Part shown: positions 4,969 through 50,365 of the stretch, piece by piece | Numbering within the stretch: the first letter of the stretch is position 1 | How the letters are laid out: every line of letters begins with the position of its first letter | NCBI GenBank assembly: GCA_964416015.1 | Contig: CAYQCT010000002.1 | Coordinates: forward strand, 9,109-61,762 | Direction: 5' to 3' | Origin: an uncultured Tepidisphaerales bacterium | GTDB taxonomy: Bacteria; Planctomycetota; Phycisphaerae; Tepidisphaerales; Tepidisphaeraceae | DNA: 52,654 nucleotides | Made by a program: the position numbers and the translations under genes | The notes under the pieces: model-generated | Databases searched by the model: none | The model's input: the letters and a program-made list of their open reading frames with translations, nothing else | What the model was told of the DNA's origin: nothing

Positions 4969-5009
4969 GGCCGCAGCATCCGCTGTCGATCCGCCGCGGG
5001 CAACCGCTT

Positions 5010-5050
5010 CGCAGAACAAACAAGAGCCCGGCCGCAGGACGGCCGGGTTC
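5010..5050 (-). terminator. Putative intrinsic terminator after the 5083..6588 gene
   Basis: The minus strand reads gaaCCCGGCCGtcctgCGGCCGGGctcttgtttgttctg. This is an 8-bp GC stem (5027-5034 / 5040-5047) with a 5-nt loop, followed by a T-rich run. Confidence 0.45.
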
Positions 5051-5082: not shown

Positions 5083-6588
5083 CTAGAACCGCTCGCTGCG
5101 GAGCTTGCGGATCGCTTCGGAGAAGCTTTCCAGGTCGGCGGTCGCGAAGGCACGCTCGCGTACCTTGCCGAATTCGGCGAGGACCGACGTCGGGCGAGTC
5201 TCGGCGGCGGAGCGGGCAGCCGTCCCTGCTTCCTGCTTCTCGAGCTCGAGCGTCTCGGCTTTGTCCTTGCGAGCGTCGGTCGTGTAGGCGTCGGCCACCG
5301 GGCGGGTCGGCGTCGAGCCGAGCACCGGCGTCCGCATCATCACACGCGACGTCGCCGGCTCGACCGGCTCCGGCGAAGGCAGCGGGGCGACTTCGACCAC
5401 CACGCCGACCTCGCTGGCTTCGTCGACCTCTTCGCCGACGAAGATCGTCTGCATCGTGCCCGGCCCTTGCTCGTTCCCGTTGTTGAAGACGCCGGAGTTG
5501 TGCTCGGTCCCGTCGAACGGCGTGCTCGGATCCGCCGCGGCGTGGAGCGCGGCGAACTCGGAGGTCTGCGTCCACCAATCTTCGTTGCCTTCAAAGCCGC
5601 CGTAGCCACGCCAGATCACGACCGAGTCGGCATTGTCGGCGACTGTGTCGAGCTGCAGACGCCAGAAGTCGCCGTCGATGAACTCGTTGGCCTGGAAGCC
5701 ACTCATGTTGTGGTAGTTGGGCATCAGGAACGGCATCACCGGTTTGCCGTACTGCTGGGCTTCGACGATGTTGCCGATGGCGTAGTCGACCCACTGATCG
5801 GTGTTGCCGTAGAAGGTGTAGAGCGAGGGCGCGATGAAGTCGACGGCGTCGCCGAGCTCCTGCAACGCCGCGTTCGCCTGCCGCCACGCGTCCATGTTGG
5901 CCTGCGTCTCTGCCAACTGGCTCCGTTTGAGGTCCCGGTGCCACTGCGAGCTGTCGCTGTCGGCCAGCGTGTCCTGCAGCTGATCGACACGCTTGGCGTG
6001 GTGTACCGGCGTCCAGTAGTCCCGCACGGGCAGAACGCCGTAGATGCCGATCTGCACGTCAGGCCGCTCGTCGTGGGCCCACTCGACCATCTGGACGAAC
6101 TTGGCCACGGTCTCCTGCACCGCCTGCGGGTCCTCACCGCGGATGTCGGAGGCCCAGTGCTCGATGTTGACGACCCACCGCTCGCCTCGACTGGCGGCGA
6201 TGCGGGCGTGTTCGCGGACGCGGCCCTCGTCGAGCTGGTCGCGGACCTGATTGCCGTTCTGGTCGACGACGAACAGGTCGCCGTAGGTCATGTAGACGCC
6301 GCCGACGCTGTGGGCGGAAAGATTCAGCCCGGCCGGCGTGGCACGCATGCCGCTGAGCACCTGGAACGTGCTCCAGTCCGCCGGGTCGCCGACGAAGCCC
6401 TCGACGCCGCTCCGGTCGAAGCCGACGTCGAGGCCGGGCGTGGTCGGATCGTCGGGCGTCGGATCGCCAGTGCCGGACGTGGTCGAGAGCATGCGGCGTT
6501 GCTCGAGCATGTCGAGCGTGATGCCGTGCCCGAAGCGACGGGCATGGCGGCGGGCCGGAACGGCGTTGCGGGTCAAGGTGTGCGTCAT
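5083..6588 (-). CDS. Secreted protein with LE-x-RR-xL leader; unclassified TIM-barrel glycosidase-like domain plus low-complexity acidic/Pro tail
   Basis: ORF 5083..6609 starts at TTG. I prefer the ATG at 6588 (MTHTLTRNAVPARRHARRFGHGITLDMLEQRRMLSTT). The ordered motifs VVNIEHW, IGIYGVLP, IAPSLYTFY and VVIWRGYGG resemble strand-end motifs of (beta/alpha)8 glycosidases. The C-terminal 130 aa are low complexity. Confidence 0.7.
   Translation of the reverse strand: MTHTLTRNAVPARRHARRFGHGITLDMLEQRRMLSTTSGTGDPTPDDPTTPGLDVGFDRSGVEGFVGDPADWSTFQVLSGMRATPAGLNLSAHSVGGVYMTYGDLFVVDQNGNQVRDQLDEGRVREHARIAASRGERWVVNIEHWASDIRGEDPQAVQETVAKFVQMVEWAHDERPDVQIGIYGVLPVRDYWTPVHHAKRVDQLQDTLADSDSSQWHRDLKRSQLAETQANMDAWRQANAALQELGDAVDFIAPSLYTFYGNTDQWVDYAIGNIVEAQQYGKPVMPFLMPNYHNMSGFQANEFIDGDFWRLQLDTVADNADSVVIWRGYGGFEGNEDWWTQTSEFAALHAAADPSTPFDGTEHNSGVFNNGNEQGPGTMQTIFVGEEVDEASEVGVVVEVAPLPSPEPVEPATSRVMMRTPVLGSTPTRPVADAYTTDARKDKAETLELEKQEAGTAARSAAETRPTSVLAEFGKVRERAFATADLESFSEAIRKLRSERF
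6484..6507 (-). other. Leader motif LEQRRMLS
   Basis: Residues 28-35 (counted from the ATG at 6588) of the glycosidase-like protein. Confidence 0.8.
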
Positions 6589-6708
6589 CTCCGTCACTTT
6601 CGGATTCAATTCCCTAGGTTACCAATGAAAAGCGATTGGCTGTGGTGTCTGGCCGGTATAGCGGGGTTAGGAGCAGCGGGGAAGAGCGCCTGAGCAAAAG
6701 AATCCGAT

Positions 6709-8010
6709 TTAGCACGACGTTAGCGAACCGACGGGTTCTGCCTGCTGCACCGCCTCGGCCGCCGCAACGCCGGAGCGGATGGCGCCGTTGATGCTCGCCG
6801 TGTCGCGGTGGTCGCCGCAGAGGAAGAGGCCGTCGGCGAGTCGCGGCGACTTGTGCACCGGCGTCAGCCCTGGCGGCCGCTGGTCCGGCAGGGCGAAGTC
6901 AATCACGTCCGACCGTAAATGCTGCAGACCGGCGGCGTACGCGTCGCCGAACAGGACGGCCATTCCACGTCGCACCGGCTCGGGGTCGGCGTCCTGCACG
7001 CCCACGACGTTGACCGACAGCAGGTCCCGGCCGTCCGGCGCGTAGGTCGGGGCAGCTTTGCTGAGACAGGCGACCGTGTTGATGCCGGCCGCGTCATCGT
7101 GGAGCTGGCCGGAGAGGAGCAACGCGTTCTCATCCGTCGGCGGCCGGGCGTGGGTGAAGTAGTGCGTCGTGGTCGCCTTCACCTGGCGAAGTTGCGTCGC
7201 GAGGTCGGTTGGCGCGTCGTCGCCGAGGAGACGGGCGGCCTGCGGTGCGTCGACCGCCACGACCACGGCGGCGGCTACGATCGCGGTGCCATTTAGCAGA
7301 CGAACCCGCCGTGGCGAGACCTCGGCGACGGGCGTGTTCCGCCGGATCTCGCTGCGAACGAGTCGGCTCGCGAGCTGGCGCGGAATCTCGCCCATTCCGC
7401 CGGCCGGCACGCACGCCCGGCCGGTCGCGAACAGGCGGAAGAGCCACAGGAACAGGCCGCCGCTGGTTGCCAGATCGCGGTCGAGGAAGACGCCGCCGAA
7501 GAACGGGCGAAAGAAGCTTTCGATCGCGAACTCGCTCAACCCCTCGCGGGCGAGCACGTCCGCGGCCGATCCCGGCGTTTCGGCGAGAAGTTGCTCCTGC
7601 GACTTTGCCAACACCCTCGCCTGCAGCCGCGCCACCCGCAGCTTGTCCGCCACCGGCAACGCCGGCGACATCGTGGTCCGCCAAAGCTGGGCAGGCGAGC
7701 GAACTGGGTCGAACACGCCGACCGGATCTGTCCGATTGCGGAGGAACGTCAGTGCCCCCGGCAGGAAGGGCCGGAGGTCCAGTGCCTCGTGATCCAGCAG
7801 CCGTCGCGCATCGGGGTAGCTATCGAGGTAAACCTGGAATCCGCGATCGAGCAGGAACCCGTCGGCATGCCGATCGGTCCGCACCCGGCCGCCGACGTCG
7901 TCGTCCGCTTCGAGCAGCAAGCAACGGACGCCGACCCGATCTAATGTCATGGCACACGCCAGCCCGGCCAATCCGGCTCCAACGATGACGACCGGCGCAT
8001 CCTGCGGCAC
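6709..8010 (-). CDS. NAD(P)/FAD-dependent oxidoreductase (flavin amine-oxidase / phytoene-desaturase-like)
   Basis: GTG start. PVVIVGAGLAGLACAMTLDRVGVRCLLLEADDDVGGRVRTDRHADGFLLDRGFQVY is a GxGxxG dinucleotide fold plus the GGR motif of the amine-oxidase superfamily. The C-terminal LFLCGDHRDTASINGAIRSG is a typical FAD-binding end. Confidence 0.85.
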   Translation of the reverse strand: MPQDAPVVIVGAGLAGLACAMTLDRVGVRCLLLEADDDVGGRVRTDRHADGFLLDRGFQVYLDSYPDARRLLDHEALDLRPFLPGALTFLRNRTDPVGVFDPVRSPAQLWRTTMSPALPVADKLRVARLQARVLAKSQEQLLAETPGSAADVLAREGLSEFAIESFFRPFFGGVFLDRDLATSGGLFLWLFRLFATGRACVPAGGMGEIPRQLASRLVRSEIRRNTPVAEVSPRRVRLLNGTAIVAAAVVVAVDAPQAARLLGDDAPTDLATQLRQVKATTTHYFTHARPPTDENALLLSGQLHDDAAGINTVACLSKAAPTYAPDGRDLLSVNVVGVQDADPEPVRRGMAVLFGDAYAAGLQHLRSDVIDFALPDQRPPGLTPVHKSPRLADGLFLCGDHRDTASINGAIRSGVAAAEAVQQAEPVGSLTSC

Positions 8011-8029
8011 ATGGCACGCTACGCCCGGG

Positions 8030-8311
8030 TCAGATCACGCCGCGGCCGACGCGGGTGCTGGTGCCGGCGCTGTCGTCGGGGACGGTCGCGTCGCCGGCGT
8101 CGTACTGGACGCTGCGGCCCTTGCCGCCGCCGGTCATACGCGTGCCGCCGGGCGAATCGAAGTCGATCTTCGCCGGGGCTGCCTTCACCGGGATCTCGCC
8201 GCGACCGGCCGGCCCGCCGACGGTCTCGCGGTGGCGAAAGTAACCGGTGACCAGTTCGTACGTCGCGTAACCGACGACCGCCAGCACGAGGATCTTCAGG
8301 GAGTTGCGCAT
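8030..8311 (-). CDS. Hypothetical small membrane-anchored protein (93 aa)
   Basis: This is the 3' part of track ORF 8030..9397, starting at the ATG at 8311: MRNSLKILVLAVVGYATYELVTGYF, one TM helix followed by a Gly-rich soluble tail. It lies 19 bp upstream of the oxidoreductase gene on the same strand. There is no recognisable family. Confidence 0.45.
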   Translation of the reverse strand: MRNSLKILVLAVVGYATYELVTGYFRHRETVGGPAGRGEIPVKAAPAKIDFDSPGGTRMTGGGKGRSVQYDAGDATVPDDSAGTSTRVGRGVI

Positions 8312-8461
8312 GGGGCGACAGTACCGCAGCCGTCCGACGGCGTGAACGGCTGAACTTGCTTCGACGCGTCCTGCGGCTGATGATTGACGGAACCAGCGTT
8401 CGCTCTTCGTCGTAGAAGCTCGAACCGCCCGCTCGTTTCCGCAGGTTCCCCCCGAAACATC

Positions 8462-10768
8462 ATGAAGCTTTCCGTCGCCCGCCGGACCCCGTCGCTCGAA
8501 AATCTCGAGCACCGCCGCCTCCTCGCAGCCGACACTGGCCCGGCCGTCATCGAGTACGACCCGCAGACCGGCGTCGTCGAGACGCTGCCCGTCGGCGAAC
8601 GCATCAATGCCGCCGACGCTGACCTGCTCGACGCGCACCTTGCCTCGCAGGGCATCGCCGGCGGCCTCGACTCGCTCCTGGCCAGCCTCGGCTCGCCGAC
8701 CGAATTCCTCGCCAGCATCGACCGCGTCCTCGGCAACGAGAGCAACGCCGGCTTCGACGCGAAGGGCGACGGCATCAGCGACAGCCTCGACCTCTCCGGC
8801 GACTGGTCGGCCGACCTGGGCACCGAAAGCGTCGTCGGCAGCGACGACCGGACCCGTGTCGTCGACGCGACCGACTTTCCCAGCAGCGCCGTCGGCCGGC
8901 TGGCCCTCGGGTGCAGCGGCGCGATGATCGGCCCGTACCACTTCCTGACGGCCGGCCACTGCGTGACCAGCGGCGGCGGCTTCCGCAGCCCGAGCCAGCT
9001 CCGCGTCACCCTCGGCCAGAACGGCAGCGACGACGCCCCCTTCGGCGTCGCCGAGGCAGAATTCGTCCGCGTCTACGACTCCTGGCAGAACGGCAGCGCC
9101 TGGGAAGATGACTGGGCCGTCATCACGCTCGATCGCTCGCTCGGCAACTACACCGGCTACTTCGGTTACCGCGTCTACGAAGGCACTAACGCATTGGCAG
9201 GCAAGCAGGTCTCGATCCTGCAGTACCCCGGCGACAAGCCCAACGGCACGCAGTGGGTCGCCAGCGGCCCTATCGCCTACTCCGACGAGGGCAAGGTCTT
9301 CTACACCGGCACCCTCGACACTGCCGGCGGATCCAGCGGAAGCGGCGTCTGGGAGATGATCGACGGCGACACCGTCCCGCAGGTCCTGGGCGTGCACGGC
9401 TACGGCACGGGCACCGGCATCTACAACTCGGCCGCCCGCATCACGCAGCAGAAGTCCGACGACATCGGCCTCTGGAAGGCCGCCGACGACGTCGCGCGTC
9501 CGCCGACGGAGAAGGCCGAGTTCGTCGTCGACGACCAGGCGAGCGTCCTCAGCGTCCTGCCGGTCGGCGGACGATTCGCCTTCGACGCCGCCGTCCGCAA
9601 CGTCGGCACGCTGCCGGCCGACGGCATGAAGGCGACCGTCCTTCTCACCGGACCGACTCTCGCCGAAGACATCGAGCTTGGAGAGGTCACGTTCGGCACG
9701 ATGACGCCCTTCGCCGACGCCGCGACCGCCGAGGTCGTGACGCGTCTGCCGGCCGAACTGGGCGAGGGCACGTACGAGGTGCAGCTCGTGCTCGACGTCG
9801 ACAACCAGTTCGACGAGTACAACGAGACGGACAACGTCGTCTCGGCAGGCCCGCTGACGATCGGCACGACCGCGGCCGCCGGCTTGCCGCAGCAGGAGCC
9901 GAACGACACCTTCTCGACGGCGACCAACCTCGGCTTCGTCGGCACCATCGAGGCCGATGAGCTAGCCATCACGACGGGCGACGTGGACTACTTCCGCTTC
10001 ACCGCCGCCGCGGCCGGCACGGTGACCGTCGACCTGCTCTTCCCGCACTTCCTGGGCGACATCGACGCCAAGCTCTACGACGGTGACGGCGGCTTCCGCG
10101 ATGCCAGCACGTCGGCGACCAACAACGAGCGTCTCGACGCCAGCGTCGCTGCGGGTGACGAGCTGGTTCTCGAGGTCTACGGCTGGTCCGGTGCGACCAA
10201 CAGCTACGACCTTCGCATTACTGGCCCGGCGGGCGGATCGGTCGCCGCACCGGAGCTGTCGTCGGCAGCCTTCTTCAAGGACGTTGCCCAGCAGATCGAC
10301 CTCGACTTCGACGGCATCATCGACACGTCGGCCGTCGCCGCGGGCGACCTGGTGCTGTCGAACCTCTCGACGGGTGCGACCTTCGACGCTAGCGGCCTCG
10401 ACTTTGCGGCAGGCCCGCGTGGCATGACGTGGGCCGTGCCGGCGGGCGGGACATTGCTGAGCAACGGCTTGTGGCAGGCGACGCTGCCGGGCTCGAGCAT
10501 CGTCAGCGCGGGCGGCGTGGCGGCACAGGCGCCGGTCAGCTTCCAGTTCGGCGTCCTCAACGGCGACGCCGACGGCAGTGGCACGGTGAACCTGGCGGAC
10601 TTCGGCGTGCTCCGCAGCAACTTCGGCCGGACCGGCTTCCTGTCGGCCGGCGAGGGCGACTTCAACTTCGACGGCCGGGTCGACCTTGCAGACTTCGGCC
10701 TGCTCCGCGGCAGCTTCGGCCAGACCGTCGCGACGCCGGGCTCGCTTTTCGCCGACGAGTCGCTGTAG
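8462..10768 (+). CDS. Secreted trypsin-like serine protease (S1, V8/Glu-endopeptidase-like) with CARDB-like, PPC, Ig-like and double dockerin-like domains
   Basis: ATG at 8462 (MKLSVARRTPSLENLEHRRLLAAD). The catalytic triad context is LTAGHCV (His), DDWAVITLD (Asp) and GGSSGSGVW (Ser). EPNDTFSTATNLG...DVDYFRFTA...YDLRI is a pre-peptidase C-terminal domain. The C-terminus is NGDADGSGTVNLADFGVLRSNFG...GDFNFDGRVDLADFGLLRGSFG. Confidence 0.9.
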   Translation: MKLSVARRTPSLENLEHRRLLAADTGPAVIEYDPQTGVVETLPVGERINAADADLLDAHLASQGIAGGLDSLLASLGSPTEFLASIDRVLGNESNAGFDAKGDGISDSLDLSGDWSADLGTESVVGSDDRTRVVDATDFPSSAVGRLALGCSGAMIGPYHFLTAGHCVTSGGGFRSPSQLRVTLGQNGSDDAPFGVAEAEFVRVYDSWQNGSAWEDDWAVITLDRSLGNYTGYFGYRVYEGTNALAGKQVSILQYPGDKPNGTQWVASGPIAYSDEGKVFYTGTLDTAGGSSGSGVWEMIDGDTVPQVLGVHGYGTGTGIYNSAARITQQKSDDIGLWKAADDVARPPTEKAEFVVDDQASVLSVLPVGGRFAFDAAVRNVGTLPADGMKATVLLTGPTLAEDIELGEVTFGTMTPFADAATAEVVTRLPAELGEGTYEVQLVLDVDNQFDEYNETDNVVSAGPLTIGTTAAAGLPQQEPNDTFSTATNLGFVGTIEADELAITTGDVDYFRFTAAAAGTVTVDLLFPHFLGDIDAKLYDGDGGFRDASTSATNNERLDASVAAGDELVLEVYGWSGATNSYDLRITGPAGGSVAAPELSSAAFFKDVAQQIDLDFDGIIDTSAVAAGDLVLSNLSTGATFDASGLDFAAGPRGMTWAVPAGGTLLSNGLWQATLPGSSIVSAGGVAAQAPVSFQFGVLNGDADGSGTVNLADFGVLRSNFGRTGFLSAGEGDFNFDGRVDLADFGLLRGSFGQTVATPGSLFADESL
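8504..8527 (+). other. Leader motif LEHRRLLA
   Basis: Residues 15-22 of the S1 protease. This is one of five copies of L-E-x-R-R-[LMH]-L-[AS] in the window. Confidence 0.8.
10559..10720 (+). repeat. Tandem dockerin-like (EF-hand-like) repeat pair, copy 1 of 3
   Basis: Encodes NGDADGSGTVNLADFGVLRSNFG-(7 aa)-GEGDFNFDGRVDLADFGLLRGSFG. The nucleotide-level similarity to 14670-14831 and 18623-18781 is visible by eye (gtSaacctYgcSgacttYggc...). Confidence 0.85.
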
Positions 10769-10795
10769 TTTCTTCGGCAGAAACGCCGCAAACCT

Positions 10796-10835
10796 GCGGC
10801 CGCCGCACTCCTTCGGGTGACGGCGGCCGTTTCGC
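10796..10835 (+). terminator. Putative intrinsic terminator after the S1 protease gene
   Basis: GGCCGCCGCAC (10798-10808), loop tccttcgg, then GTGaCGGCGGCC (10817-10828) with one bulge, followed by gtttcg. A second small hairpin gtttc-ttcggca-gaaac lies directly after the stop codon. Confidence 0.5.
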
Positions 10836-11011
10836 GTCGTCGACCGCGTACTCCGCCGGTGCGGGTCGTGCGGACGCGGCGTGATGGAGCTTTATGCAGA
10901 TGGCGTAAATAAAGCTTGTCGGACGTAGCGTTACCGGCTAGGGTGTCGAAGTCAGGGCCGGCCCTCGTCGTGGTCGCGTCCCCGCATGGGATCGAAAATG
11001 CTCGTGCGTCA

Positions 11012-11056
11012 AGAAGTTTTCACCCGCGATAGAAGTTTTCCGCGTCCGAAGTTCTG
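11012..11056 (+). promoter_or_regulatory. AT-rich direct repeats upstream of the beta-helix gene (candidate operator)
   Basis: AGAAGTTTTC occurs exactly twice (11012-11021 and 11031-11040). A degenerate third copy cGAAGTTcTg lies at 11047-11056. The periods are 19 and 16 nt. The repeats are 135-180 bp upstream of the ATG at 11190, in an otherwise GC-rich genome. Confidence 0.3.
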
Positions 11057-11189
11057 CCTCACGACATCACTCCGCGTCGCCGCCGGTCCCGTCTGCTGGG
11101 ATCAGTCGGTTGACTGCCGCGAGTTTCACTTTCGTCTCACCAGTCGCCTCCTCGGCCTGTTTTTGCTTACCTCGTAAGGACCTCTGTAC

Positions 11190-14100
11190 ATGCGTCGCCC
11201 GACGTCACCCAACGCCCGTCTGAATCTTCTCGAGAGCCTCGAGAGCCGTCGCCTTCTGGCGAACATCGTCGTGACCACGCTGGCCGACTCGGTCGCCGGG
11301 GCCGAGACGAGCCTTCGTGACGCGTTGGCCCAGGCCGATGCGAATGCAGAGGCCGACATCATCACGTTCGGCGGCACCGCTGCCAACGGCGGCACGATCA
11401 CGCTCGACGCGCTCAACGGCCAGCTCGAGATCGCCTCGACCGAGGCCATCACGATCACGGCCCCGTCGGCCGGCGTCACCGTCGACGCCGCCGGCAACAG
11501 CCGCGGCCTCGTCGTCGGCGACGGTGCGACGGTCTCAATCTCAAACCTGAGCTTTAGCAACGGCGACACGATCACCTCGGACGCTCGCGGCGGCAACATC
11601 GCGGTCGGCGAAGGTGCGACCTTCACGATGGTCGACGGCAGCCTGACCGGCGGCGTCGCCAACCAGGGCGGCGGCCTCTACGCGGTTCTTGCGACCGTCT
11701 CCCTGACCGACGTCGACATCACCGGCAACCTGGCCGACGACACCGAAGCCGTCACCGGCGGCTTCGGCGGTGGCGTCCGCGTGCTCGGCAGCGACCTGAC
11801 GATCGTCGGCGGCAACATCAGCGGCAACACGGCTGGCACGCTCGCCACTGAGCCCGATCCGGACAATGTCGGCGAACTGCTCGACGACTCCGGCTCCGGT
11901 GCCGGTATCGCGGTCGGTGCCCTTTCCGACGGCGAAGATCCGCCCACGCTGACGCCGAGCACCTTCTCGATCAGCGGTGTCACCTTCGACGGCAACGTCG
12001 CGGCGAACCCCGAGGGCAACGGCGACGCCGGCGGCATCCGCGTCGACGGCTCGAGCGGCAGCGTCAGCAACTCGACCTTCCAGAACCACAGCACCGGCTT
12101 CGGCGCGGGCATGCTGACGTTCAACTCGGACATCACGCTCAACGAAGTCACCTTCCTCAACCACGACGCAACCGGCTCCGGCGGCGCGCTCTACTTCGAC
12201 GGCGGCACCATCGATGATGCGACGACCGTCACCAACACCCTCGTCATCAACGGCGGCAGCATCGAGAACAGCACCGCCGGCGGCGGCGGCGCCATGATCA
12301 TCTTCGACGGCGATGCCGACATCGACGACCTTGACGTCATTAACAGCTCCGTCACCGGCAACGGCGGTGGCATCTTCTCGCAGAACGGCAACCTCGAGCT
12401 GACCAACTCGCTCATCCAGGGCAGCGTCTCCGACTCGGGCGTCACCGGCGGCGGCGGCTTCGGCGGCGGCGTGCTGTACGCACGCTTCTCGGTCGCGCCC
12501 GGCACCGTCACCTTCGAGAACAACGAGTTCTACAGCAACACCGCCCGCGTCGGCGGCGGAGCCTTCATCCAGGACGCGGAGTTCTTCAGCACCAACGACC
12601 AGTTCGGTGATCTCGTCGACCAGGGCGACGATCCGGACCTCGACCTGGGCAACGACGCCCGCAACGACGGCGGCGGCCTGTTCCTCAACGGCGGCGACGG
12701 CGTCCACAGCATCACCGGCACGACCTTCACCGGCAACAACTCTGAGACGGTCGATGACCCCGAAGGCACCGGTGCCGGCGGCGGCATGATCTACTTCGGC
12801 CAGAACGACGGCACGCTCTCGATCGCCGACTCCGAGTTCCTCAGCAACGACGGCGACGTCTTCGGCGGCGGTGCCATTCTCGTCAACCGTGGCGGCGGCG
12901 GTGCGATCAGCATCACGGGCACCACCTTCGCTGGCAACGCCGCCCAGATCGGCGGCGGCCTCGACTACAACGGCCCCAGCACCGGTGCCCCGCCCGCGTT
13001 GACGGCCCTGGCCGGCGGCGATGAAGTCGACGGCGTCGCGACCTACACCGCCTCCGAGCTCGAGACGCTCAAGCGGTCCGGCTACCAGGGCGAAGCGGCG
13101 ACGCTGACCTCCGTCGAGCGGCTCGTCCGCGATGCGAACGGCCGCACGTCGGTCGTGACGCAGGAACGTCCGGCGGATCGCACAGACGATCGTGGCACGT
13201 CCCGCGGCTTGGCGAGCCTGACGACGCCGGCGTTGTTCGACGATTCGTCGATGACGATCAGCAACTCGACCTTCGAGAACAACATCGGCTTCGCCGGTGG
13301 TGGTGCCCGGTTCTTCTTCGGTCGGGCCAATGTCATCGACACGAACTTCATCAACAACAACGGCTTCTTCTCGCTGCCGCTGGCCAACCGGGACTTCGTC
13401 AACGGCACGGGTGAAGTCACCGGCACGTCCAACGGCGGCGGCATCTTCTCGATCAGTGCGGACCTGGCCGTCGAGCGTTCGGCGTTCATCGGCAACGACG
13501 TCACGTTCCCCGAGACCTTCGAGACGGTTGATCCGGACACCAACCTTCCCGTCACGCTGACGCTGACGCTGGAAGCCGGTGTCGAGGATTCGTCCGGCGG
13601 TGGCATCGACTGGCTCGGCAGCGACAACAACGCTGACGGTGCTGCGACGGCGGCCGGCGCCCGTGCCGACCTGAGCTTCGTGAACAGCACGATCGGCGGC
13701 AACATTGCCGCGGACGCCGCCGGTGCCCGTTTTGAGGGCAGCCTCGGCGACACGGGTGACTTCCCGACGACGTTCGACCTGACCTTCGTCAACAGCACGA
13801 TCTTCGACAACGAAGCGACGAACACCGCCGGCGGTATCCAGCTGGTCAACCAGGCGTTCGCGGTGCCCGCCTTCGGCGTGCCGGAAGCGAACGCGTTCTT
13901 CTACAACACCGTCCTCAGCGGCAACACCGCCGACGGTGCCGTGTCGAACTACAGCGACATCAGCCAGGACCTCGACCCGGGCACCGTGCCGGTCACGGTC
14001 CTGTTCGACAACAACTACCTCGGCTCCGACCTCGCTGGCGAGGCTGCCGACAACCTCATCGGCGACGCGCCGCTGCTGTCCGAGGCCGTCTTCGGCGGTG

Positions 14101-14888
14101 GCACGACCGGCGTCTACGTCCCGCTCATCGGCAGCCCGCTGCTCGATGCCGGCGACAACGCCTTGGCCAAGGATCCGGGCGACGATGCCCTGCTCCAGCC
14201 GAGCGACTCGACGCTCACGCTCGATGCCCGTGGCTCGTCGTTCTTCGACCGCTTCTTCGACTACCCGACCGCCGCCGGCACTGGCGTCGACATCGGCGCT
14301 GTCGAGAAGCAGGGCCCCGATGCCGGCGAGACCGGCGTCTTCGACATCGGCATGGAGGCGACCGTCAGCTTCACCTTCGATCAGTCGATCGACGCCTCGA
14401 CCGCGGCCGGTACCGACCTCGTCCTCGTCAACAACACGACCGAGGAAGAGATCGACACCACCGGCGTCACGACCAGCTACGATCCGGGCACGAACACCCT
14501 CACGTTCGACCTCACGTCGCTCATCCAGAACGGCCTGCTCACGAACGGCAACTACACGGCGACCCTCGCCGCGTTCAGCCCGGACACGGATGCTGGCGAT
14601 CCGGACGGCGTCTTCGGCCTCAACGGCTCGCCCAACGCCCTCTCGGCCAGCGTCGACTTCTCGTTCGTCAACGGCGACGCCAACCGTGACCTCCGCGTGA
14701 ACCTTGCCGACTTCGGCATCCTGCGTGGCAACTTCGGCGCACAGAGCGGCGTCGGCTTCCTGCAGGCCGACTTCAACCTCGACGGCCGCGTGAACCTCGC
14801 CGACTTCGGCATCCTGCGCGGCAACTTCGGCTTCACGCTGCCGGCACCGACTGCTTCGCTCTTCAGCGAAGAGGCCGCCGGCTTCTGA
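11190..14888 (+). CDS. Large secreted right-handed parallel beta-helix repeat protein (Pmp/adhesin- or lyase-like) with Ig-like and double dockerin-like C-terminus
   Basis: ATG at 11190 preceded by AAGGA. The leader is MRRPTSPNARLNLLESLESRRLLANIVVTTLAD. ETSLRDALAQADANAEADIITFGG resembles a 'CSLREA'-type N-cap. There are dozens of about 25-aa repeats of the form GGGxx...N(S/T)xFxxN. The C-terminus is NGDANRDLRVNLADFGILRGNFG...ADFNLDGRVNLADFGILRGNFG. Confidence 0.9.
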   Translation: MRRPTSPNARLNLLESLESRRLLANIVVTTLADSVAGAETSLRDALAQADANAEADIITFGGTAANGGTITLDALNGQLEIASTEAITITAPSAGVTVDAAGNSRGLVVGDGATVSISNLSFSNGDTITSDARGGNIAVGEGATFTMVDGSLTGGVANQGGGLYAVLATVSLTDVDITGNLADDTEAVTGGFGGGVRVLGSDLTIVGGNISGNTAGTLATEPDPDNVGELLDDSGSGAGIAVGALSDGEDPPTLTPSTFSISGVTFDGNVAANPEGNGDAGGIRVDGSSGSVSNSTFQNHSTGFGAGMLTFNSDITLNEVTFLNHDATGSGGALYFDGGTIDDATTVTNTLVINGGSIENSTAGGGGAMIIFDGDADIDDLDVINSSVTGNGGGIFSQNGNLELTNSLIQGSVSDSGVTGGGGFGGGVLYARFSVAPGTVTFENNEFYSNTARVGGGAFIQDAEFFSTNDQFGDLVDQGDDPDLDLGNDARNDGGGLFLNGGDGVHSITGTTFTGNNSETVDDPEGTGAGGGMIYFGQNDGTLSIADSEFLSNDGDVFGGGAILVNRGGGGAISITGTTFAGNAAQIGGGLDYNGPSTGAPPALTALAGGDEVDGVATYTASELETLKRSGYQGEAATLTSVERLVRDANGRTSVVTQERPADRTDDRGTSRGLASLTTPALFDDSSMTISNSTFENNIGFAGGGARFFFGRANVIDTNFINNNGFFSLPLANRDFVNGTGEVTGTSNGGGIFSISADLAVERSAFIGNDVTFPETFETVDPDTNLPVTLTLTLEAGVEDSSGGGIDWLGSDNNADGAATAAGARADLSFVNSTIGGNIAADAAGARFEGSLGDTGDFPTTFDLTFVNSTIFDNEATNTAGGIQLVNQAFAVPAFGVPEANAFFYNTVLSGNTADGAVSNYSDISQDLDPGTVPVTVLFDNNYLGSDLAGEAADNLIGDAPLLSEAVFGGGTTGVYVPLIGSPLLDAGDNALAKDPGDDALLQPSDSTLTLDARGSSFFDRFFDYPTAAGTGVDIGAVEKQGPDAGETGVFDIGMEATVSFTFDQSIDASTAAGTDLVLVNNTTEEEIDTTGVTTSYDPGTNTLTFDLTSLIQNGLLTNGNYTATLAAFSPDTDAGDPDGVFGLNGSPNALSASVDFSFVNGDANRDLRVNLADFGILRGNFGAQSGVGFLQADFNLDGRVNLADFGILRGNFGFTLPAPTASLFSEEAAGF
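11238..11261 (+). other. Leader motif LESRRLLA
   Basis: Residues 17-24 of the beta-helix protein. Confidence 0.8.
14670..14831 (+). repeat. Tandem dockerin-like repeat pair, copy 2 of 3
   Basis: NGDANRDLRVNLADFGILRGNFG-(9 aa)-ADFNLDGRVNLADFGILRGNFG. The second repeat with its following FTLP is near-identical at the DNA level to 18740-18793. Confidence 0.85.
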
Positions 14889-14926
14889 ATCTGAACAGCC
14901 GGCCTCGGCCGACTGCAACCTCTTTC

Positions 14927-14962
14927 GCCGCCCCGGCCACTCGGCCGGGGCGGCTTTGCGTT
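14927..14962 (+). terminator. Intrinsic terminator after the beta-helix gene
   Basis: Perfect 12-bp stem GCCGCCCCGGCC (14927-14938) / GGCCGGGGCGGC (14943-14954) with a 4-nt loop actc, followed by tttgcgttg. Confidence 0.7.
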
Positions 14963-15134
14963 GTCATCCGCACAAGCTGCCTCATCGGCCCGATAGTCGC
15001 GTGACCTGCCGCGGAAACTCGCCGCTTCGGAAGCCGCCGCGTCAGTCGGTGCGAAACTAGGATGCCGCGGCTCCGGAGCAGAAGTTTCTGCAGACTCCGG
15101 CGTGCCTTGATTCGTAGGAAGGCCAGCGGCGGAG

Positions 15135-16871
15135 GTGGGAGACTGTCATGCGTCATCGCTCGAGCCGCGCCGGCACCTGGCGGCCGATCCGCTCGTGAGC
15201 GAGCAGTGGCATCTCGCTCCGCCGACACCCGGCGAGGCCGGTGCGAACGTGCTGGCGGCGCATGCGATGCCGTCACCGACCGATGCCGCCGTCGACGGCA
15301 GCGGTGTCCTGGTCGCGATTGTCGACAACGGCGTACGCCTCGACCACTACGACCTCGACGACAACCTCATTGCCGACTACGGCTACGACTTTGCCGACGA
15401 CGACCCGCTCCCGCTCGCGTCCGGCTCCGTGCCGCAGAGCAGTCCGTGGTGGGGCCACGGGACGGCCGTCGCGGGCATTGTCGCGGCCGAAGCGGGCAAC
15501 GGCCGCGGCGGGCAGGGCGTCGCGCCCGACGCGTCGCTGGCGGCGTTGCGTCTCTTCGCCGGTGCCTCACCGCCGACCGACGATGCGGCCGCCGCGGCAC
15601 TCGCGTGGCGGGCGGACGAGGTCGACGTCTATGTAAACGCCTGGGGCCCGGCCGACGATGGCGAGCGGTTCGAAGGCCCCGCCCCGGCGACGGCGGCGGT
15701 GATCGAGCAGACGGCCACTACGGGTCGCGGCGGGCTCGGCTCGGTCCTCGTCTGGGCCGCCGGCAACGGTGGCAGCGACGACGACGCCAACCGCGACGGA
15801 TACGCCAACAGCCGGCACACAATCGCCGTCACTGCCGTTTCGGAGCAGGGCGTTCGCCCGTTCTACGCCGAAACTGGCGCGAACCTGCTCGTCGCGGCAC
15901 CTTCGTCGGGACAGACGGGGACCGACCGCGCGATCGTCACGGCCTCCCCTCTGCTCGCCGAGGCGAGTGCGTCATCTGTGCCGCCACTGGCCGAAGGTGT
16001 GCCTGCGGCCGCCGAATTGGTCCCTCGCTCGATCGCGTTGGAGCCGCTGGCGTCGTCGACCGGCTACCGCGACGACTTCGGCGGCACAAGCGCAGCCGCT
16101 CCGGTCGTGGCCGGCGTCGTGGCGTTGATGCTGGAAGCCAATCCCGATTTGTCCGCCCGCGACGTCCAGCACGTTCTGGTCGACTCTGCCGTGCAGAACG
16201 ATGCGACGTCCGGAACCTGGCAGATCAATGCCGCCGGCCGCACCGTCAGTCACGTCTACGGGCACGGCCTGGTCGACGCCGCCGCGGCCGTGACGCTCGC
16301 GCAGGACTGGCAGACCGTCGGTTCCGAGCAATCGGTCGCCACGCCGACCGTGTCCGTGGCAACGCCAATCCCCGCCGACGGCTCAACCTTGTCGGTCCCG
16401 CTCTCGCTGCCGGCCGGGATCCGCATCGAGCACGTCGAGCTCGATCTCGACGCCAGCCACACCTTCCGCGGCGACATCGAGGCCGTCCTGCGTTCGCCGA
16501 ATGGCACCGAGAGCCGCCTGCTGGTGGCCAACGATGATCCAAACGAAGATATCCGCGACTGGACCCTGACGAGCACGCAACATTGGGGCGAGTCCAGCGG
16601 CGGCGTCTGGACGCTCAACGTGCGAGATGCGTTTCCCGCTTCGGACAACGGCGTTTTGAATAATGTTCAGCTCCGCGCATTCGGGACGGTTGTTCCTCAG
16701 CCGGCGGTTCAGGCGTTTGGCCCCTCGTCGCGAGCGTCGCCGGCGAGGATCTGGACGGGACAAGCAGAAACTTTCGCTGCCGAAGCAATGAACGGCAGTG
16801 GCGTGCGACACGTATCTGTGATAACAGTGTTTGTAGACCGGCGGCTGGGGCCGATGTTGCTGGTCATGTAG
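15135..16871 (+). CDS. S8 subtilisin-family serine protease with kexin/furin-type P (proprotein convertase) domain
   Basis: GTG at 15135 is the only start possible, because an in-frame TGA lies at 15108-15110. The catalytic motifs are VAIVDNGV (Asp), GHGTAVAGIVAA (His) and GGTSAAAPVVAGVVALMLEANP (Ser). The P-domain signature is FRGDIEAVLRSPNGTESRLL...WTLNVRD. The leader is MGDCHASSLEPRRHLAADP. The last 59 codons or so are AT-richer and look like read-through. Confidence 0.9.
   Translation: MGDCHASSLEPRRHLAADPLVSEQWHLAPPTPGEAGANVLAAHAMPSPTDAAVDGSGVLVAIVDNGVRLDHYDLDDNLIADYGYDFADDDPLPLASGSVPQSSPWWGHGTAVAGIVAAEAGNGRGGQGVAPDASLAALRLFAGASPPTDDAAAAALAWRADEVDVYVNAWGPADDGERFEGPAPATAAVIEQTATTGRGGLGSVLVWAAGNGGSDDDANRDGYANSRHTIAVTAVSEQGVRPFYAETGANLLVAAPSSGQTGTDRAIVTASPLLAEASASSVPPLAEGVPAAAELVPRSIALEPLASSTGYRDDFGGTSAAAPVVAGVVALMLEANPDLSARDVQHVLVDSAVQNDATSGTWQINAAGRTVSHVYGHGLVDAAAAVTLAQDWQTVGSEQSVATPTVSVATPIPADGSTLSVPLSLPAGIRIEHVELDLDASHTFRGDIEAVLRSPNGTESRLLVANDDPNEDIRDWTLTSTQHWGESSGGVWTLNVRDAFPASDNGVLNNVQLRAFGTVVPQPAVQAFGPSSRASPARIWTGQAETFAAEAMNGSGVRHVSVITVFVDRRLGPMLLVM
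15159..15182 (+). other. Leader motif LEPRRHLA
   Basis: Residues 9-16 of the S8 protease. Confidence 0.75.
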
Positions 16872-16936
16872 TTCCCGATGATGTGTCGGGCATCCGCCCG
16901 TTGTTTCTTGGCCGTTGGCCACATCCAGTTTTGCTC

Positions 16937-18856
16937 ATGCGTCAGACCCCTCGCCGTCGACTCTCTTCGCACGCTCTCCCGGAGCAGGTGCACCTCGATC
17001 GCCTCGAAGGCCGACGGATGCTGTCGGCGACGGATCTTCGCGGCGAAATCATCGGCACGCACGTGCCCGGCGCGTGCGGTTGCGGCGTCTGCAGCGGTGC
17101 CCTCAGCTACGCGGACGGCCGATCGTTTCTGGAAGTTGCCCTCGCCGAGGCGACGAAGAACGGCATGCCGGCGAACGGCATCGATCTCGACCCGGCCTCC
17201 ATCGGCCTGTCGGGCCTGACGACCGAGGGCGGCGACGGCTTCGAGCTGGGCCGTGGCGAGGCGACGTCCGCCATCACCACCGCAAACGCAACGCCGCCCG
17301 GCGACTTCGACATCATCGTCGAGTTCCAGTCGCCGGTCACGGCGGCGCAGGAGGCGGCCTTCGCCCAGGCCGAGCTAATCTGGGAGAGCATCATCCTCGG
17401 CGACGTGGCCGATACGTTCGTCAGCGGCTACGGCCCGGTCGACGACCTGGTCATCTTCAGCGACCTCGGTCCGATCGACGGTCCCGGCAACATTCTCGGC
17501 CAGGCCTGTCCGTTCAGCTTCCGCGGCAGTGGCATTCCGCGAGCCGGTTCGATGGACTTCGACTCGGCCGACCTCGCCTCGCTGGAACAGCAGGGCCTGC
17601 TAACCGACGTGATCGTCCACGAGATGGGCCACGTCCTGGGCGTCGGCACGATCTGGGGCAGCCTCGGCCTGCGGCAAGGCGCCGGCACCAGCAACCCGCG
17701 GTACATCGGCAGCGAAGCGCTGGCGGAGTACAACACGTTCGTCGACAACAACACGAGCAACATCCCGCTCGCCAACGTCGGCGGCCCGGGCAGCCGCGAC
17801 TCGCACTGGCGGGAAAGCACGTTCAACAACGAGCTGATGAGCCCGAACCTCAACGGCGGCAGCAACCCGCTGAGCCGGATGACCGCCGCCTCGCTCATCG
17901 ACTACGGCTACACGAACATCGACCTCGATGCGACCGACTTCTACGAACTGCCCGGCGGCAACGACGCGCCCCGGCTCTTCGGCCTCGGCACGAGCGTCGA
18001 TCCCGTGCCGGACGGCGGAACGGTGACGCTCTCCGTGCCCGCCACCGACACCGACTCGGGCATGGATCGCGTCGAGTTCTGGCTCGACTCCAACGGCCGC
18101 GACGGGTTGCAGCGGGGCACGAACAACCCCGACACGCTGCTCGGCGTCGACTCGACGCCCTCCGGGAGCACCTACAGCGTGGAGCTGCCCGCGTCCGACT
18201 TCGAGCCGGGCGACAACACCGTCATCGCCCGCGGCTTTGATCAGCGAAACCTCGGTAGCAGCGACCGCAGCACGATCGTCTCTCGCGAGGCGGATCTGGT
18301 CGGACCCGAAGTGACGGACACGGCCGTCTTCCTCGAGCAGTCGCAGCAGCTGCGCTTCACCTTCGGCGAGCGGACCGAGGCCGATCCTGTCGTGAGCGAC
18401 CTGACGCTGACGAACCTGACGACGGGCCAGGTCGTGCCGACCTCGACGCTGTCGCTGCAGGTGGTCAAGGTCGGGCAGGTCACGGTCGCGACGTTCTCCT
18501 ACGACGTGTCGGGCAATGGCCCGCTGGCCAACGGCAACTACCGCGCGACGCTCGCCGCCGGTGCCGCCGAAGATGCGGCGGGCAACGGCTCGCTCGAGAC
18601 GGTGATCGACTTCGCCTTCGTCAATGGCGACGCCGACGGCAGCGGCACGGTCAACCTCGCCGACTTCGGCGTCCTCCGGGCGAACTTCGGCCAGAACGGT
18701 CGGACCTTCTCCGAGGGCGACTTCAACTACGACGGCCTCGTTAACCTCGCCGACTTTGGCATCCTTCGCGGCAACTTCGGCTTTACCCTGCCGAGCAACG
18801 CGACCGCCATCTTCAGCGATTCGAGCGTCGATGACGAGGACGAACGAAACGTCTGA
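16937..18856 (+). CDS. Secreted zinc metalloprotease, leishmanolysin-like (M8), with Ig-like and double dockerin-like C-terminus
   Basis: ORF 16883..18856 trimmed to the ATG at 16937 (MRQTPRRRLSSHALPEQVHLDRLEGRRMLSATD). VIVHEMGHVLGVGTIWG is an HExxH motif. The downstream DSHWRESTFNNELMSP gives the third His ligand plus the ELM motif typical of M8. The C-terminus is NGDADGSGTVNLADFGVLRANFG...EGDFNYDGLVNLADFGILRGNFG. Confidence 0.85.
   Translation: MRQTPRRRLSSHALPEQVHLDRLEGRRMLSATDLRGEIIGTHVPGACGCGVCSGALSYADGRSFLEVALAEATKNGMPANGIDLDPASIGLSGLTTEGGDGFELGRGEATSAITTANATPPGDFDIIVEFQSPVTAAQEAAFAQAELIWESIILGDVADTFVSGYGPVDDLVIFSDLGPIDGPGNILGQACPFSFRGSGIPRAGSMDFDSADLASLEQQGLLTDVIVHEMGHVLGVGTIWGSLGLRQGAGTSNPRYIGSEALAEYNTFVDNNTSNIPLANVGGPGSRDSHWRESTFNNELMSPNLNGGSNPLSRMTAASLIDYGYTNIDLDATDFYELPGGNDAPRLFGLGTSVDPVPDGGTVTLSVPATDTDSGMDRVEFWLDSNGRDGLQRGTNNPDTLLGVDSTPSGSTYSVELPASDFEPGDNTVIARGFDQRNLGSSDRSTIVSREADLVGPEVTDTAVFLEQSQQLRFTFGERTEADPVVSDLTLTNLTTGQVVPTSTLSLQVVKVGQVTVATFSYDVSGNGPLANGNYRATLAAGAAEDAAGNGSLETVIDFAFVNGDADGSGTVNLADFGVLRANFGQNGRTFSEGDFNYDGLVNLADFGILRGNFGFTLPSNATAIFSDSSVDDEDERNV
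17003..17026 (+). other. Leader motif LEGRRMLS
   Basis: Residues 23-30 of the M8-like protease. Confidence 0.8.
18623..18781 (+). repeat. Tandem dockerin-like repeat pair, copy 3 of 3
   Basis: NGDADGSGTVNLADFGVLRANFG-(7 aa)-EGDFNYDGLVNLADFGILRGNFG. Confidence 0.85.
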
Positions 18857-18879: not shown

Positions 18880-18920
18880 GCAGCCCCGGGTCGTCATCCG
18901 GGGCTGCTTTGCTTCGTTGG
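18880..18920 (+). terminator. Intrinsic terminator after the M8 protease gene (overlaps the stop codon of the convergent M28 gene)
   Basis: GCAGCCCCGG (18880-18889), loop gtcgtcat, CCGGGGCTGC (18898-18907), then tttgcttcgttgg. The TGA of the minus-strand gene (comp. 18894-18896) lies in the loop. Confidence 0.55.
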
Positions 18921-21436: not shown

Positions 21437-21596
21437 GACCGGACGTTCAGATGTCTGCGAAGACTGTCGTCAGGTGGACCAGACGCGAAATGTTGACATA
21501 CTGGCCCTACGGTGAGGCCGATCGCGTGCATGCCGCGCCGGCCCGTGCCGGCCGTGTCGGGTGGCCGCGACCCGTTCTCGAAAATCCAGTCTGCTC

Positions 21597-22760: not shown

Positions 22761-22763
22761 AGG

Positions 22764-24251: not shown

Positions 24252-24267
24252 GTTCTTGCTCGTCGCG

Positions 24268-25899: not shown

Positions 25900-25965
25900 G
25901 GTGGTGGCAGCAGATCCGCCAGCTGTGACCGTAAGGCTTAGCGGGCAGGGCGACAACCGCCGCAC

Positions 25966-30045: not shown

Positions 30046-30078
30046 TTCGCCGGCTGCCACGCGTCACGACATCTTCGC

Positions 30079-30110
30079 CGCCCCGAACGCTCCGTCCGGG
30101 GCGTTTGCGT
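30079..30110 (+). terminator. Possible terminator/attenuator hairpin between the export gene and the exosortase gene
   Basis: CGCCCCG (30079-30085), an 11-nt loop, CGGGGCG (30097-30103), then tttgcgtg. Confidence 0.35.
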
Positions 30111-30207
30111 GCGCCGGCGCGCACCGCGGCGAAGGTTCCGACGTAGAACGCCTCCGCGCGGTACAGTCGACGGACCCGCGGGCCGACCTACGGCGGAGGA
30201 GACGACC

Positions 30208-32488: not shown

Positions 32489-32609
32489 ACTTGTCTTCCA
32501 ATCCTTCCCGGTCGGGCATGGCCGACCGGGGCGACGGGGGCTGTGGGATCACCACCCGCGTTCGAACCACCACCACCCGCCGCGTTCGCGCGGCTGCCGA
32601 ATCCACCGC

Positions 32610-44526: not shown

Positions 44527-44529
44527 CGC

Positions 44530-50318: not shown

Positions 50319-50365
50319 GCTTTTGCGAACGACCGTCAGGCCACTCTTGCTCTATAGGCGAAGAT

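Follow-up and report, generated by a model that had tools for sequence, protein, structure and literature searches.

How do planctomycetes, and many Gram-negative bacteria, export large proteins that have no Sec signal? The question is raised by a 52,654-nt stretch of DNA from an uncultured Tepidisphaerales bacterium (contig CAYQCT010000002.1, positions 9,109 to 61,762 of the forward strand), which we call the window. Five clustered genes in the window encode proteins of 500-1,200 residues that share a short N-terminal leader with the core L-E-x-R-R-[LMH]-L-[AS]. We refer to these proteins as cargos 1 to 5. As judged from profile comparisons, their leaders are divergent copies of a leader that has already been catalogued. 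In other genomes, genes for proteins with this leader adjoin a published secretion-like operon for which no substrate has been named.

We searched the six-frame translation of the window with a strict pattern, LE.RR[LMH]L[AS], and with two looser ones, LE.R.[LMHIVF]L[AST] and E.RR.L[AS]. All three found the same five sites, and only those, in ~105,000 codons (Table 1). The expectation from composition is 0.007 matches for the strict pattern and 0.11 for the loose pattern. In 200 dinucleotide-preserving shuffles the strict pattern never matched, and the loose pattern matched at most once per shuffle. The sites have the coordinates and strands that an earlier note on this DNA had assigned to them. 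The motif as written in that note also holds at all five sites. However, the conserved unit is longer: four of the five leaders share L-[ED]-x-L-E-x-R-R-x-L-[AS].

Table 1. Features of the window, followed by features at loci in other genomes (L numbers). Strand is given where assigned.
Feature	Coordinates	Strand	Remarks
YebC, KDPG aldolase	648-2237
GT4 glycosyltransferase	3688-5019	-
Cargo 1, 501-aa TIM-barrel protein, glycosidase-like (uncertain)	5083-6588	-	ORF; ATG 6588 likely start, TTG 6609 farthest
Cargo 1 leader motif	6484-6516 (core 6484-6507)	-	LDMLEQRRMLS
Amine oxidase, between cargos 1 and 2	6709-8010	-
Cargo 2, S1 (trypsin-like) protease with CARDB, PPC and C-terminal dockerin-like module	8462-10768	+	ATG 8462 likely start
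Cargo 2 leader motif	8495-8527 (core 8504-8527)	+	LENLEHRRLLA; PF07595 20.4 bits
Cargo 2 dockerin-like EF-hand pair and SLFADESL tail	10565-10765	+
Cargo 3, 1232-aa beta-helix-type repeat protein with Big_5 and C-terminal dockerin-like module	11190-14888	+
Cargo 3 leader motif	11229-11261 (core 11238-11261)	+	LESLESRRLLA; PF07595 19.8 bits
Cargo 3 dockerin-like pair and SLFSEEAAGF tail	14673-14885	+	Pfam Dockerin_1 1162-1209
Cargo 4, S8 subtilase with proprotein-convertase P-domain	15135-16871	+	GTG start; in-frame stop at 15108
Cargo 4 leader motif	15159-15182	+	LEPRRHLA; PF07595 12.3 bits
Cargo 5, leishmanolysin-like (M8) metalloprotease with Big_7 and C-terminal dockerin-like module	16937-18856	+	ATG 16937 likely start, GTG 16883 farthest
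Cargo 5 leader motif	16994-17026 (core 17003-17026)	+	LDRLEGRRMLS
Cargo 5 dockerin-like pair and AIFSDSSVDD... tail	18629-18853	+
M28 peptidase with transmembrane segments	18894-20510	-
MqnA-like, Rho, DUF2254, ScyD/E-like protein, PLP enzyme	20609-27372		Rho at 21561-22760
Exopolysaccharide (EPS)/exosortase locus: Poly_export, exosortase, EpsI-like, 1657-aa TPR protein, chain-length tyrosine kinase	28639-40162
Prepilin-type N_methyl protein	41220-41981	-
266-aa protein, likely exosortase substrate	41978-42778	-	VPEP...RRRR C-terminus
Nucleotide-sugar dehydrogenase, GcvP, CBM_4_9 protein, PriA	43177-52642
M50 protein N-terminal domain, L044	3699-4079
M50 protein N-terminal domain, L034	6595-6999
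M50 protein N-terminal domain, L017	4489-4893
M50 protein N-terminal domain, L067	3513-3905
SapC-family and TolC-like genes upstream of leader gene, L035	2168-3043
SapC-family and TolC-like genes upstream of leader gene, L051	1853-2599
SapC-family and TolC-like genes upstream of leader gene, L086	1133-1975

Each motif heads a long open reading frame (ORF) of 501-1232 aa. Third-position GC is high in all five ORFs, in-frame stops lie 16-113 codons upstream of the motifs, and the distance from the likely start to the motif is 8-27 residues. The earlier note had excluded a hidden upstream signal peptide for the S8 gene, and considered one possible in principle for the other four. Stops, and a lack of start codons, exclude it for all five. 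The farthest possible starts are 34, 40, 16, 8 and 40 codons before the motif in cargos 1 to 5 respectively; in cargo 5 there is no start codon from the stop at 16661 to GTG 16883. With the farthest usable starts only 8-40 codons before the motif, an ordinary upstream signal peptide is ruled out.

Like Sec and Tat signal peptides, the leader is N-terminal, has basic residues ahead of it and occupies the same position in homologues, and its Arg-Arg is superficially Tat-like. Unlike them, it has neither a hydrophobic core (h-region) nor an AxA site. The maximal 10-residue Kyte-Doolittle hydropathy (KD10) of the five leaders is 0.02-1.29, versus 2.26-3.39 for classical signals and anchors in the window (lipoprotein-like ORFs and the M28 peptidase). 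Hence, by hydropathy, none of the five leaders contains the hydrophobic stretch of ~10-15 residues that typifies a Sec type I signal, and there is no coding room for one upstream. Arg-Arg is present in all five, but no h-region lies behind it as in Tat signals. Furthermore, the second Arg varies beyond the window copies, and on these two grounds we rejected a Tat signal. Thus, the leader is real, N-terminal and neither Sec- nor Tat-like, as the earlier note had held, and it heads proteins of extracytoplasmic type. In AlphaFold models of cargos 1 and 4 the leader lies outside the fold at pLDDT <50; as modelled, it is an unstructured stretch that reaches up to the first folded domain. With no hydrophobic core to detect, signal-peptide predictors will probably class the five proteins as non-secreted.

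Pfam bears out three of the cargo types that had been proposed: trypsin-like for cargo 2 (Trypsin 1.2e-07, CARDB 3e-07), S8 for cargo 4 (Peptidase_S8 1.4e-41, P_proprotein 2.7e-20) and M8 for cargo 5 (Peptidase_M8 7.4e-09). The other two are less secure. For cargo 3, said to be a beta-helix protein, all matches are sub-threshold (CSLREA_Nterm at 26-47, choice-of-anchor Q, Big_5 and Dockerin_1); the leader motif abuts the start of the CSLREA N-terminal domain. Cargo 1, said to be glycosidase-like, matched no family in Pfam and NCBIfam searches. Its AlphaFold model, examined with its homologues aligned, is a confident TIM barrel (core residues 70-355), and the fold matches, of weak similarity, are to GH53 and clan GH-A enzymes. 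All five cargos are low in cysteine (0-4 per protein). A scan of the window proteins found no GGxGxD repeats, the mark of RTX proteins, in any of the five.

Cargos 2, 3 and 5 end with a dockerin-like EF-hand pair followed by xLF[SA][DE]; cargos 1 and 4 do not. The pair has the sequence DFNYDGxVDLADFxxLxxNFG and is followed by a Pro-rich linker and the xLF[SA][DE] tail, often ending ...[DE][DE][LV]L[A]. The same C-terminus is seen in nearly all leader-bearing S8 homologues (P0002-P0075). In P0190 and P0243 the module and tail stand behind a classical Sec signal peptide, and elsewhere the module precedes a PEP-CTERM anchor. Hence, it behaves as an independent surface-anchoring module. In those other proteins a PEP-CTERM anchor stands where the tail would be, so the tail may be another kind of C-terminal signal, for sorting or anchoring. 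A profile search with the module returned only fragments of ≤200 aa. Cargo 4 is 170-400 residues shorter than its leader-bearing homologues and is missing their dockerin module. Residues 1-13 and 532-578 of its AlphaFold model are at pLDDT <50, and its last 47 residues, a low-confidence tail (...VITVFVDRRLGPMLLVM), run up to the next gene. The shortness of cargo 4 may be due to truncation.

Homologues of the cargos show the leader alternating with signal peptides. We compared the 120 best homologues of cargo 4 across its S8 and P-domains (best identity 47%). Their N-termini fall into three classes. Some have a classical hydrophobic signal peptide, usually followed by an S8 pro-domain; some have no extension and carry RTX repeats; and ~25 of the 120 have the leader, all in Planctomycetota or Tepidisphaeraceae where the source is named. 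The dockerin-like pair with xLF[SA][DE], often with [DE][DE][LV]L[A], ends 22 of 24 leader-bearing S8 homologues. In the cargo 1 family, the leader is found in 7 planctomycete-type homologues and a classical signal peptide in others. Thus, in two of the five families a leader or a Sec signal peptide occupies the same position, which supports a role for the leader in export. In many homologues the first folded domain begins a few residues after LL[AS]; hence, the motif marks the end of the leader. One metagenome contig with an S8 homologue (L001, with P0005; genes 6732-9875 and 10001-12271) has a leader (RLIENLETRRLLATFV) on the upstream 1047-aa gene also. Thus, cargo genes cluster in pairs elsewhere too, with no machinery nearby.

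To what family does the leader belong? The earlier note had given the name LEPR-XLL for a motif of this kind. The motif is not new, and has been in Pfam as PF07595 (Planc_extracel) since 2004, when Studholme, Fuerst and Bateman described it as the 'planctomycete extracellular' motif and proposed that it was a novel export signal (PMC8567305, PMC3343278). The PF07595 pattern, ...ExLExRxLLA, is one of predicted extracellular proteins and lies in their first ~50 residues. The five window motifs agree with it in position, and four of them in the extended unit also. The Pfam model matches cargos 2, 3 and 4 at the motif (scores in Table 1), each below the gathering threshold of 25.5 bits, and reports no match for cargos 1 and 5. 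The NCBIfam model NF012209 (LEPR-XLL; cut-off 17 bits) matched none of the five N-termini, even at E ≤10. When 35 leaders from the window and from homologues were aligned, a single Arg proved invariant and one Glu was shared by at least 90% of the sequences. With Φ for a hydrophobic residue, the consensus reads Φ-E-x-Φ-E-x-R-x-L-L-[AS]. The family at large keeps just one Arg, so the twin arginine is a local trait of the window copies.

The profile of these 35 leaders was searched against 1.84 billion representative proteins (E ≤0.001). There were eight significant matches: seven N-terminal leaders of the form RRKILFEALEPRLLLSADG and one eukaryotic EGF false positive. When six of the retrieved proteins were tested, five passed NF012209 (24.8-40.9 bits). 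Close homologues scored 13.0 and 11.9 bits with the same model. Most of the retrieved leaders tested pass NF012209, and PF07595 matches window proteins at the motif; the window leaders are therefore, on these comparisons, divergent members of one family. They are Arg-Arg-containing copies of the LEPR-XLL, or 'planctomycete extracellular', leader. The name given in the note was therefore right in substance.

The window copies share with PF07595 an N-terminal position, the consensus RRLxxExLExRxLLA, a planctomycete host and extracellular enzyme or adhesin cargo, often with dockerin, cadherin or Calx-beta domains. They differ in falling below its threshold, in having an invariant second Arg and in having [LMH] where the consensus has L. 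They share the core LE-P-R-x-L-L with NF012209 (also 'LEPR-8K'). Unlike them, that model is tuned to canonical FEALEPRLLLSADG on giants of ~8,000 aa that are largely proteobacterial; the window cargos are 500-1,200-aa enzymes with no DUF4347. Curated family models miss divergent leaders such as the five window copies. In Tuwongella immobilis, Seeger et al. (2021) counted 52 proteins with a related motif, among them giants of 4,016-10,566 residues; the motif is present in 8 of the 10 longest proteins. Proteomics detected 20 of the 52, and 8 of these 20 were exclusive to the SDS-soluble fraction (PMC8567305). In line with the earlier note, our literature searches found no paper that demonstrates machinery or cleavage site by experiment.

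The canonical leader is not confined to planctomycetes. A degenerate DNA pattern encoding F-E-x-L-E-x-R-x-L-L-S-[AG]-D, run against named genomes at one per species, matched at least 120 loci. Among the matches listed, 82 were classed as N-terminal and ~78 are credible leaders, positioned 10-90 codons after the start, behind a basic stretch, in ORFs often >1,000-2,600 residues long. The credible leaders among these matches were found in Planctomycetota (23), Gammaproteobacteria (17), Betaproteobacteria (17), Alphaproteobacteria (8), Desulfobacterota (10) and Verrucomicrobiota (2), so that about two thirds are from Proteobacteria or Desulfobacterota. Hence, the label 'planctomycete-specific' fails for the canonical leader. 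The planctomycete cargos are diverse enzymes; those of other phyla are mostly DUF4347, RTX or cadherin giants. Outside planctomycetes, DUF4347 is directly behind the leader in 19 of 48 proteins and RTX repeats are present in the first 850 residues of 6 of 48. Some leader proteins have C-terminal RTX repeats as well, and leader proteins with RTX repeats are also described in the literature (PMC10868602). Close to the C-terminus of one deltaproteobacterial leader protein of 1175 aa (L098) are hydrophobic segments (...AIAASTGLSVGYVVWLLRGGALLSSVLSS...) that probably span a membrane; if these are real, some leader proteins may stay membrane-anchored. We rejected 38 'class B' matches (...RRERRLEARLALLA/FERFEQRGFFTADVG), in which one mid-ORF peptide (...VVDRGRLAVQAEARRERRLEARLALLA/FERFEQRGFFTADVGAE...) recurs across many phyla, at L003, L006, L008, L012, L013 and 33 further loci. 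The peptide seems to come from a widely conserved gene read in another frame or antisense, and not to be a leader; we treated it as an artefact, and these loci served only as control DNA.

What lies beside leader genes in these genomes? Among 130 neighbouring ORFs of non-planctomycete leader genes the commonest families were HlyD (15), OEP (9), Peptidase_M50 (4) and SecA (3), and there was no ABC ATPase. BLAST clustering and PDB searches grouped the neighbours into five sets: a MacA-like adaptor of ~300 aa, which is directly upstream of the leader gene in 10 loci; a longer adaptor of ~600 aa; a ~720-aa protein with 6-8 transmembrane helices, an HExxH motif and a C-terminal HlyD-like region; a SecA paralogue of ~660 aa; and TolC-like proteins. 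Where at least 1.2 kb of upstream DNA was available, genes of this module were present at 13 of 44 non-planctomycete leader loci. A TolC-like gene was upstream at 7 more, in five cases within 600 nt. At one planctomycete locus (L076, Sedimentisphaerales), genes for M50/HlyD, the SecA-like protein, an HlyD adaptor, a TolC-like lipoprotein and a leader protein all lie within 8 kb.

The adjacency also holds in the opposite direction. A metagenome scan with an M50/HlyD alignment gave 600 candidate stretches, of which 567 were confirmed, and we kept 80 loci. The gene order is constant: GAF-HlyD (the long adaptor), M50/HlyD, SecA-like, HlyD (the short adaptor). These genes are present in 75, 80, 66 and 44 of the 80 loci respectively, numbers that are limited by contig ends. 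Where the locus extended at least 1.2 kb past the operon, a leader gene was nearby in 11 of ~27 cases, and in 10 it was the next gene downstream on the same strand. The same leader detector gave no independent matches in 278 kb of control loci. In several Gammaproteobacteria, SapC-family and TolC-like genes are found upstream of leader genes (Table 1). A 2026 preprint on Chlorobium chlorochromatii describes SapC and TolC genes (Cag_662, Cag_664) that adjoin the giant-protein genes Cag_663 and Cag_665.

In a six-member alignment of the M50 protein, HExxH and N-P-x4-D (NPxxxxDG), the two metal-binding motifs of site-2 proteases, are conserved. The C-terminal third matches solved membrane-fusion proteins in the PDB (E = 5e-6), and a PDB sequence search with the M50 part gave no site-2-protease match. 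For the cytoplasmic N-terminal domain of ~130 aa (Table 1), the best PDB match, over nearly its full length, is the lasso-peptide RRE protein TfuB1 (PqqD-like), at a non-significant E = 0.09-0.25. By this best match the domain recalls RiPP leader recognition by RRE domains, a similarity that is not significant. Of the SecA domains, the paralogues have the DEAD motor and the preprotein-binding domain but not the wing/scaffold domain.

This operon has been described before. Kamneva, Poudel and Ward (2015) reported a module of GAF-HlyD, Peptidase_M50, secondary SecA_DEAD and HlyD/biotin-lipoyl genes, sometimes with OEP, and gave its role as completely unknown, with no substrate named (PMC4452313). 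They listed it in R. baltica SH1 (RB142/144/146), Blastopirellula marina, Pirellula staleyi, Planctomyces brasiliensis and Phycisphaera mikurensis, and also in Verrucomicrobium, Nitrospira and Proteobacteria (PMC4452313). Rhodopirellula baltica, the organism in which PF07595 was defined, is thus a module-bearing genome. The operon beside leader genes is identical to the 2015 module in gene content and order, and has the same phyletic range (Planctomycetes, Verrucomicrobia, Proteobacteria and Nitrospirae). The differences are that the 2015 paper names no cargo, that the link to the leader is drawn here from adjacency and that the module is not in the window. Our literature searches found no paper connecting leader and module.

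These observations suggest an explanation. It seems to us an even call that the leader is a targeting peptide for Sec-independent export of the five enzymes, to the cell surface or beyond, by SecA-like, M50, HlyD and TolC proteins. More tentatively, and at rather less than even chances, the LEPR-XLL/PF07595 leader may be the missing substrate signal of the orphan secondary-SecA/M50-HlyD/GAF-HlyD/HlyD/TolC module, the two together forming a distinct envelope-spanning pathway. Both membranes would be crossed in one step, by a type-I-like route. The leader would be recognised by a machine made up of the secondary SecA-like ATPase, with its preprotein-binding domain, the polytopic M50-HlyD fusion, two HlyD adaptors (one with GAF) and a TolC-like channel. 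The leader would be bound by the SecA-like ATPase, the M50 N-terminal domain or both, and the unfolded chain driven N-terminus first through the M50/adaptor/TolC conduit. With HExxH and NPxxxxDG kept, the M50 domain could clip the leader. Folding of the Ca2+-binding modules, which are dockerin-like in the window proteins and RTX or cadherin in others, would take place outside the cell. A planctomycete would use a single export module, encoded at another place in its genome, for many scattered cargo genes, the five of the window among them.

Such a pathway would resemble type I secretion (HlyB/HlyD/TolC) in its HlyD adaptors, its TolC channel and its substrates, which have no Sec signals, are often giant, bind Ca2+ and contain few cysteines. 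It would differ in that a SecA-like ATPase and an M50-like membrane protein replace the ABC transporter, and in that the conserved signal is N-terminal, not C-terminal. The window proteins also differ from RTX-type substrates in having no GGxGxD repeats. Double-glycine leaders and their PCAT exporters offer a second comparison: these leaders too are short, N-terminal and free of a hydrophobic core, and use a dedicated exporter that carries its own protease. However, the leader has no conserved Gly-Gly, the protease would be M50 rather than C39, and the cargos are large enzymes, not small peptides. We rejected a double-glycine leader, as GG occurs behind the motif only where an SdrD-type domain begins.

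Several observations weigh against the leader and the module forming one pathway. The window leaders fail both curated family thresholds, and a tblastn search of the window with 34 module proteins found nothing in 52.6 kb. Module genes were seen at only 1 of 20 planctomycete leader loci, that of Sedimentisphaerales, and where the flanks of module loci are visible, more than half lack an adjoining leader gene. Gemmata is not in the 2015 table of module-bearing genomes (PMC4452313), and Tuwongella, which is related to Gemmata, has the 52 variant-leader proteins noted above; hence, Gemmataceae may be an exception to the pairing. The leader-binding role proposed for the M50 N-terminal domain draws on the non-significant match to TfuB1. 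As some leader proteins have RTX repeats, a C-terminal type-I signal could be their true export signal. Finally, recognition, direction of transport, cleavage and energy source are steps that we infer.

Could the cargos instead be classical type-I substrates? Their export signal would then be C-terminal (RTX elsewhere; here the dockerin-like pair with its acidic and hydrophobic tail), and the N-terminal motif would be an element for retention, anchoring or processing, as in LapA-type adhesins. Three of the five cargos do have the pair and tail, as do 22 of 24 S8 homologues with a leader; leader genes most often have HlyD and TolC genes beside them; and in Proteobacteria the leader proteins are giant adhesins, in some cases bearing RTX repeats (PMC10868602). 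Tuwongella leader proteins were found in the SDS-soluble fraction (PMC8567305). However, cargo 1 and its family, and cargo 4, have no C-terminal module; the same module and tail also occur behind a Sec signal peptide (P0190, P0243) and before PEP-CTERM anchors; and no ABC exporter is beside leader genes in the neighbourhoods examined. In cargo 4, moreover, the catalytic domain begins ≤5 residues behind the leader, which leaves no room for a plug domain. We consider type-I export unlikely, although a cryptic C-terminal signal is conceivable. An atypical Sec or Tat signal, for which a basic stretch and RR-x-L-[AS] would suffice for SecA/SecYEG or TatABC, with a type-II-like step across the outer membrane, is improbable. 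It would account for the interchange of leader and Sec signal peptides in homologues and for the invariant Arg-Arg of the window copies, and the window does encode a prepilin-type (N_methyl) protein. Conversely, leader KD10 is ≤1.29, against ≥2.26 for real signals in the window; a cut after LL[AS] would not have a small residue at -3; the family as a whole conserves a single Arg; and the h-region needed by Tat signals is missing. Tat exports folded proteins, and cargos of several thousand residues (ORFs of >2,600 aa run off the loci) seem unlikely Tat substrates.

It is very improbable that the motif is no targeting signal at all, and is instead a shared N-terminal pro-peptide, a regulatory peptide or a relic of common descent of gene starts. 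The five genes are clustered, so that 5' ends could have been exchanged. Against this, the five mature proteins have unrelated folds, and the motif is found, always N-terminally, on hundreds of unrelated proteins from several phyla; it also alternates with signal peptides in orthologous families and co-localises with secretion genes. The earlier note had pointed to the exosortase locus and membrane proteases of the window as the place to seek the machinery. Proximity speaks for the exosortase/EpsI locus (30.1-32.5 kb), the membrane-bound M28 peptidase or DUF2254, the M28 gene abutting that of cargo 5 and the exosortase locus being 10 kb away. However, PEP-CTERM, the signal on which exosortases act, is C-terminal. 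We scanned every ORF of the window for it by regex and found one credible case, the 266-aa protein with a VPEP...RRRR C-terminus (Table 1), and none in the five cargos. This protein is likely, from its sequence, to be the exosortase substrate in the window. It has a hydrophobic N-terminus that resembles a short signal peptide, and its gene adjoins that of the prepilin-type protein, ~2 kb past the exosortase/EPS locus. We therefore rejected the exosortase as leader machinery. Furthermore, M28, DUF2254 and exosortase are not in the 25 commonest of >100 neighbour families at ~70 other leader loci. With no module homologue in the window either, the suggested place does not hold up, and machinery encoded in the window is scarcely credible.

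The remaining genes of the window are listed in Table 1. The M28 peptidase, on the opposite strand to cargo 5, has an N-terminal signal anchor and, by eye, a multi-spanning C-terminal half. Family models match Rho only from ~model position 113, and its first ~80 residues are unmatched; hence, the N-terminal RNA-binding part is divergent or missing.

Taken alone, the window is an ordinary find: five further members, all divergent, of a leader family that entered the catalogues 20 years ago. The added value lies outside it, in the reciprocal and position-specific association of the leader with a published orphan secretion-like operon. The link between leader and operon is a concrete hypothesis, with named genes and a defined leader. 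For annotation, leader proteins risk being missed both by predictors that seek a hydrophobic core and by curated models. If the hypothesis is true, there would be a secretion pathway that reads an N-terminal, non-hydrophobic leader and has a SecA paralogue, not an ABC transporter, as its source of power, the leader possibly being removed by a built-in site-2-type protease. This pathway would export the giant adhesins of proteobacteria and much of the planctomycete exo-enzyme repertoire, including the five proteins of the window.

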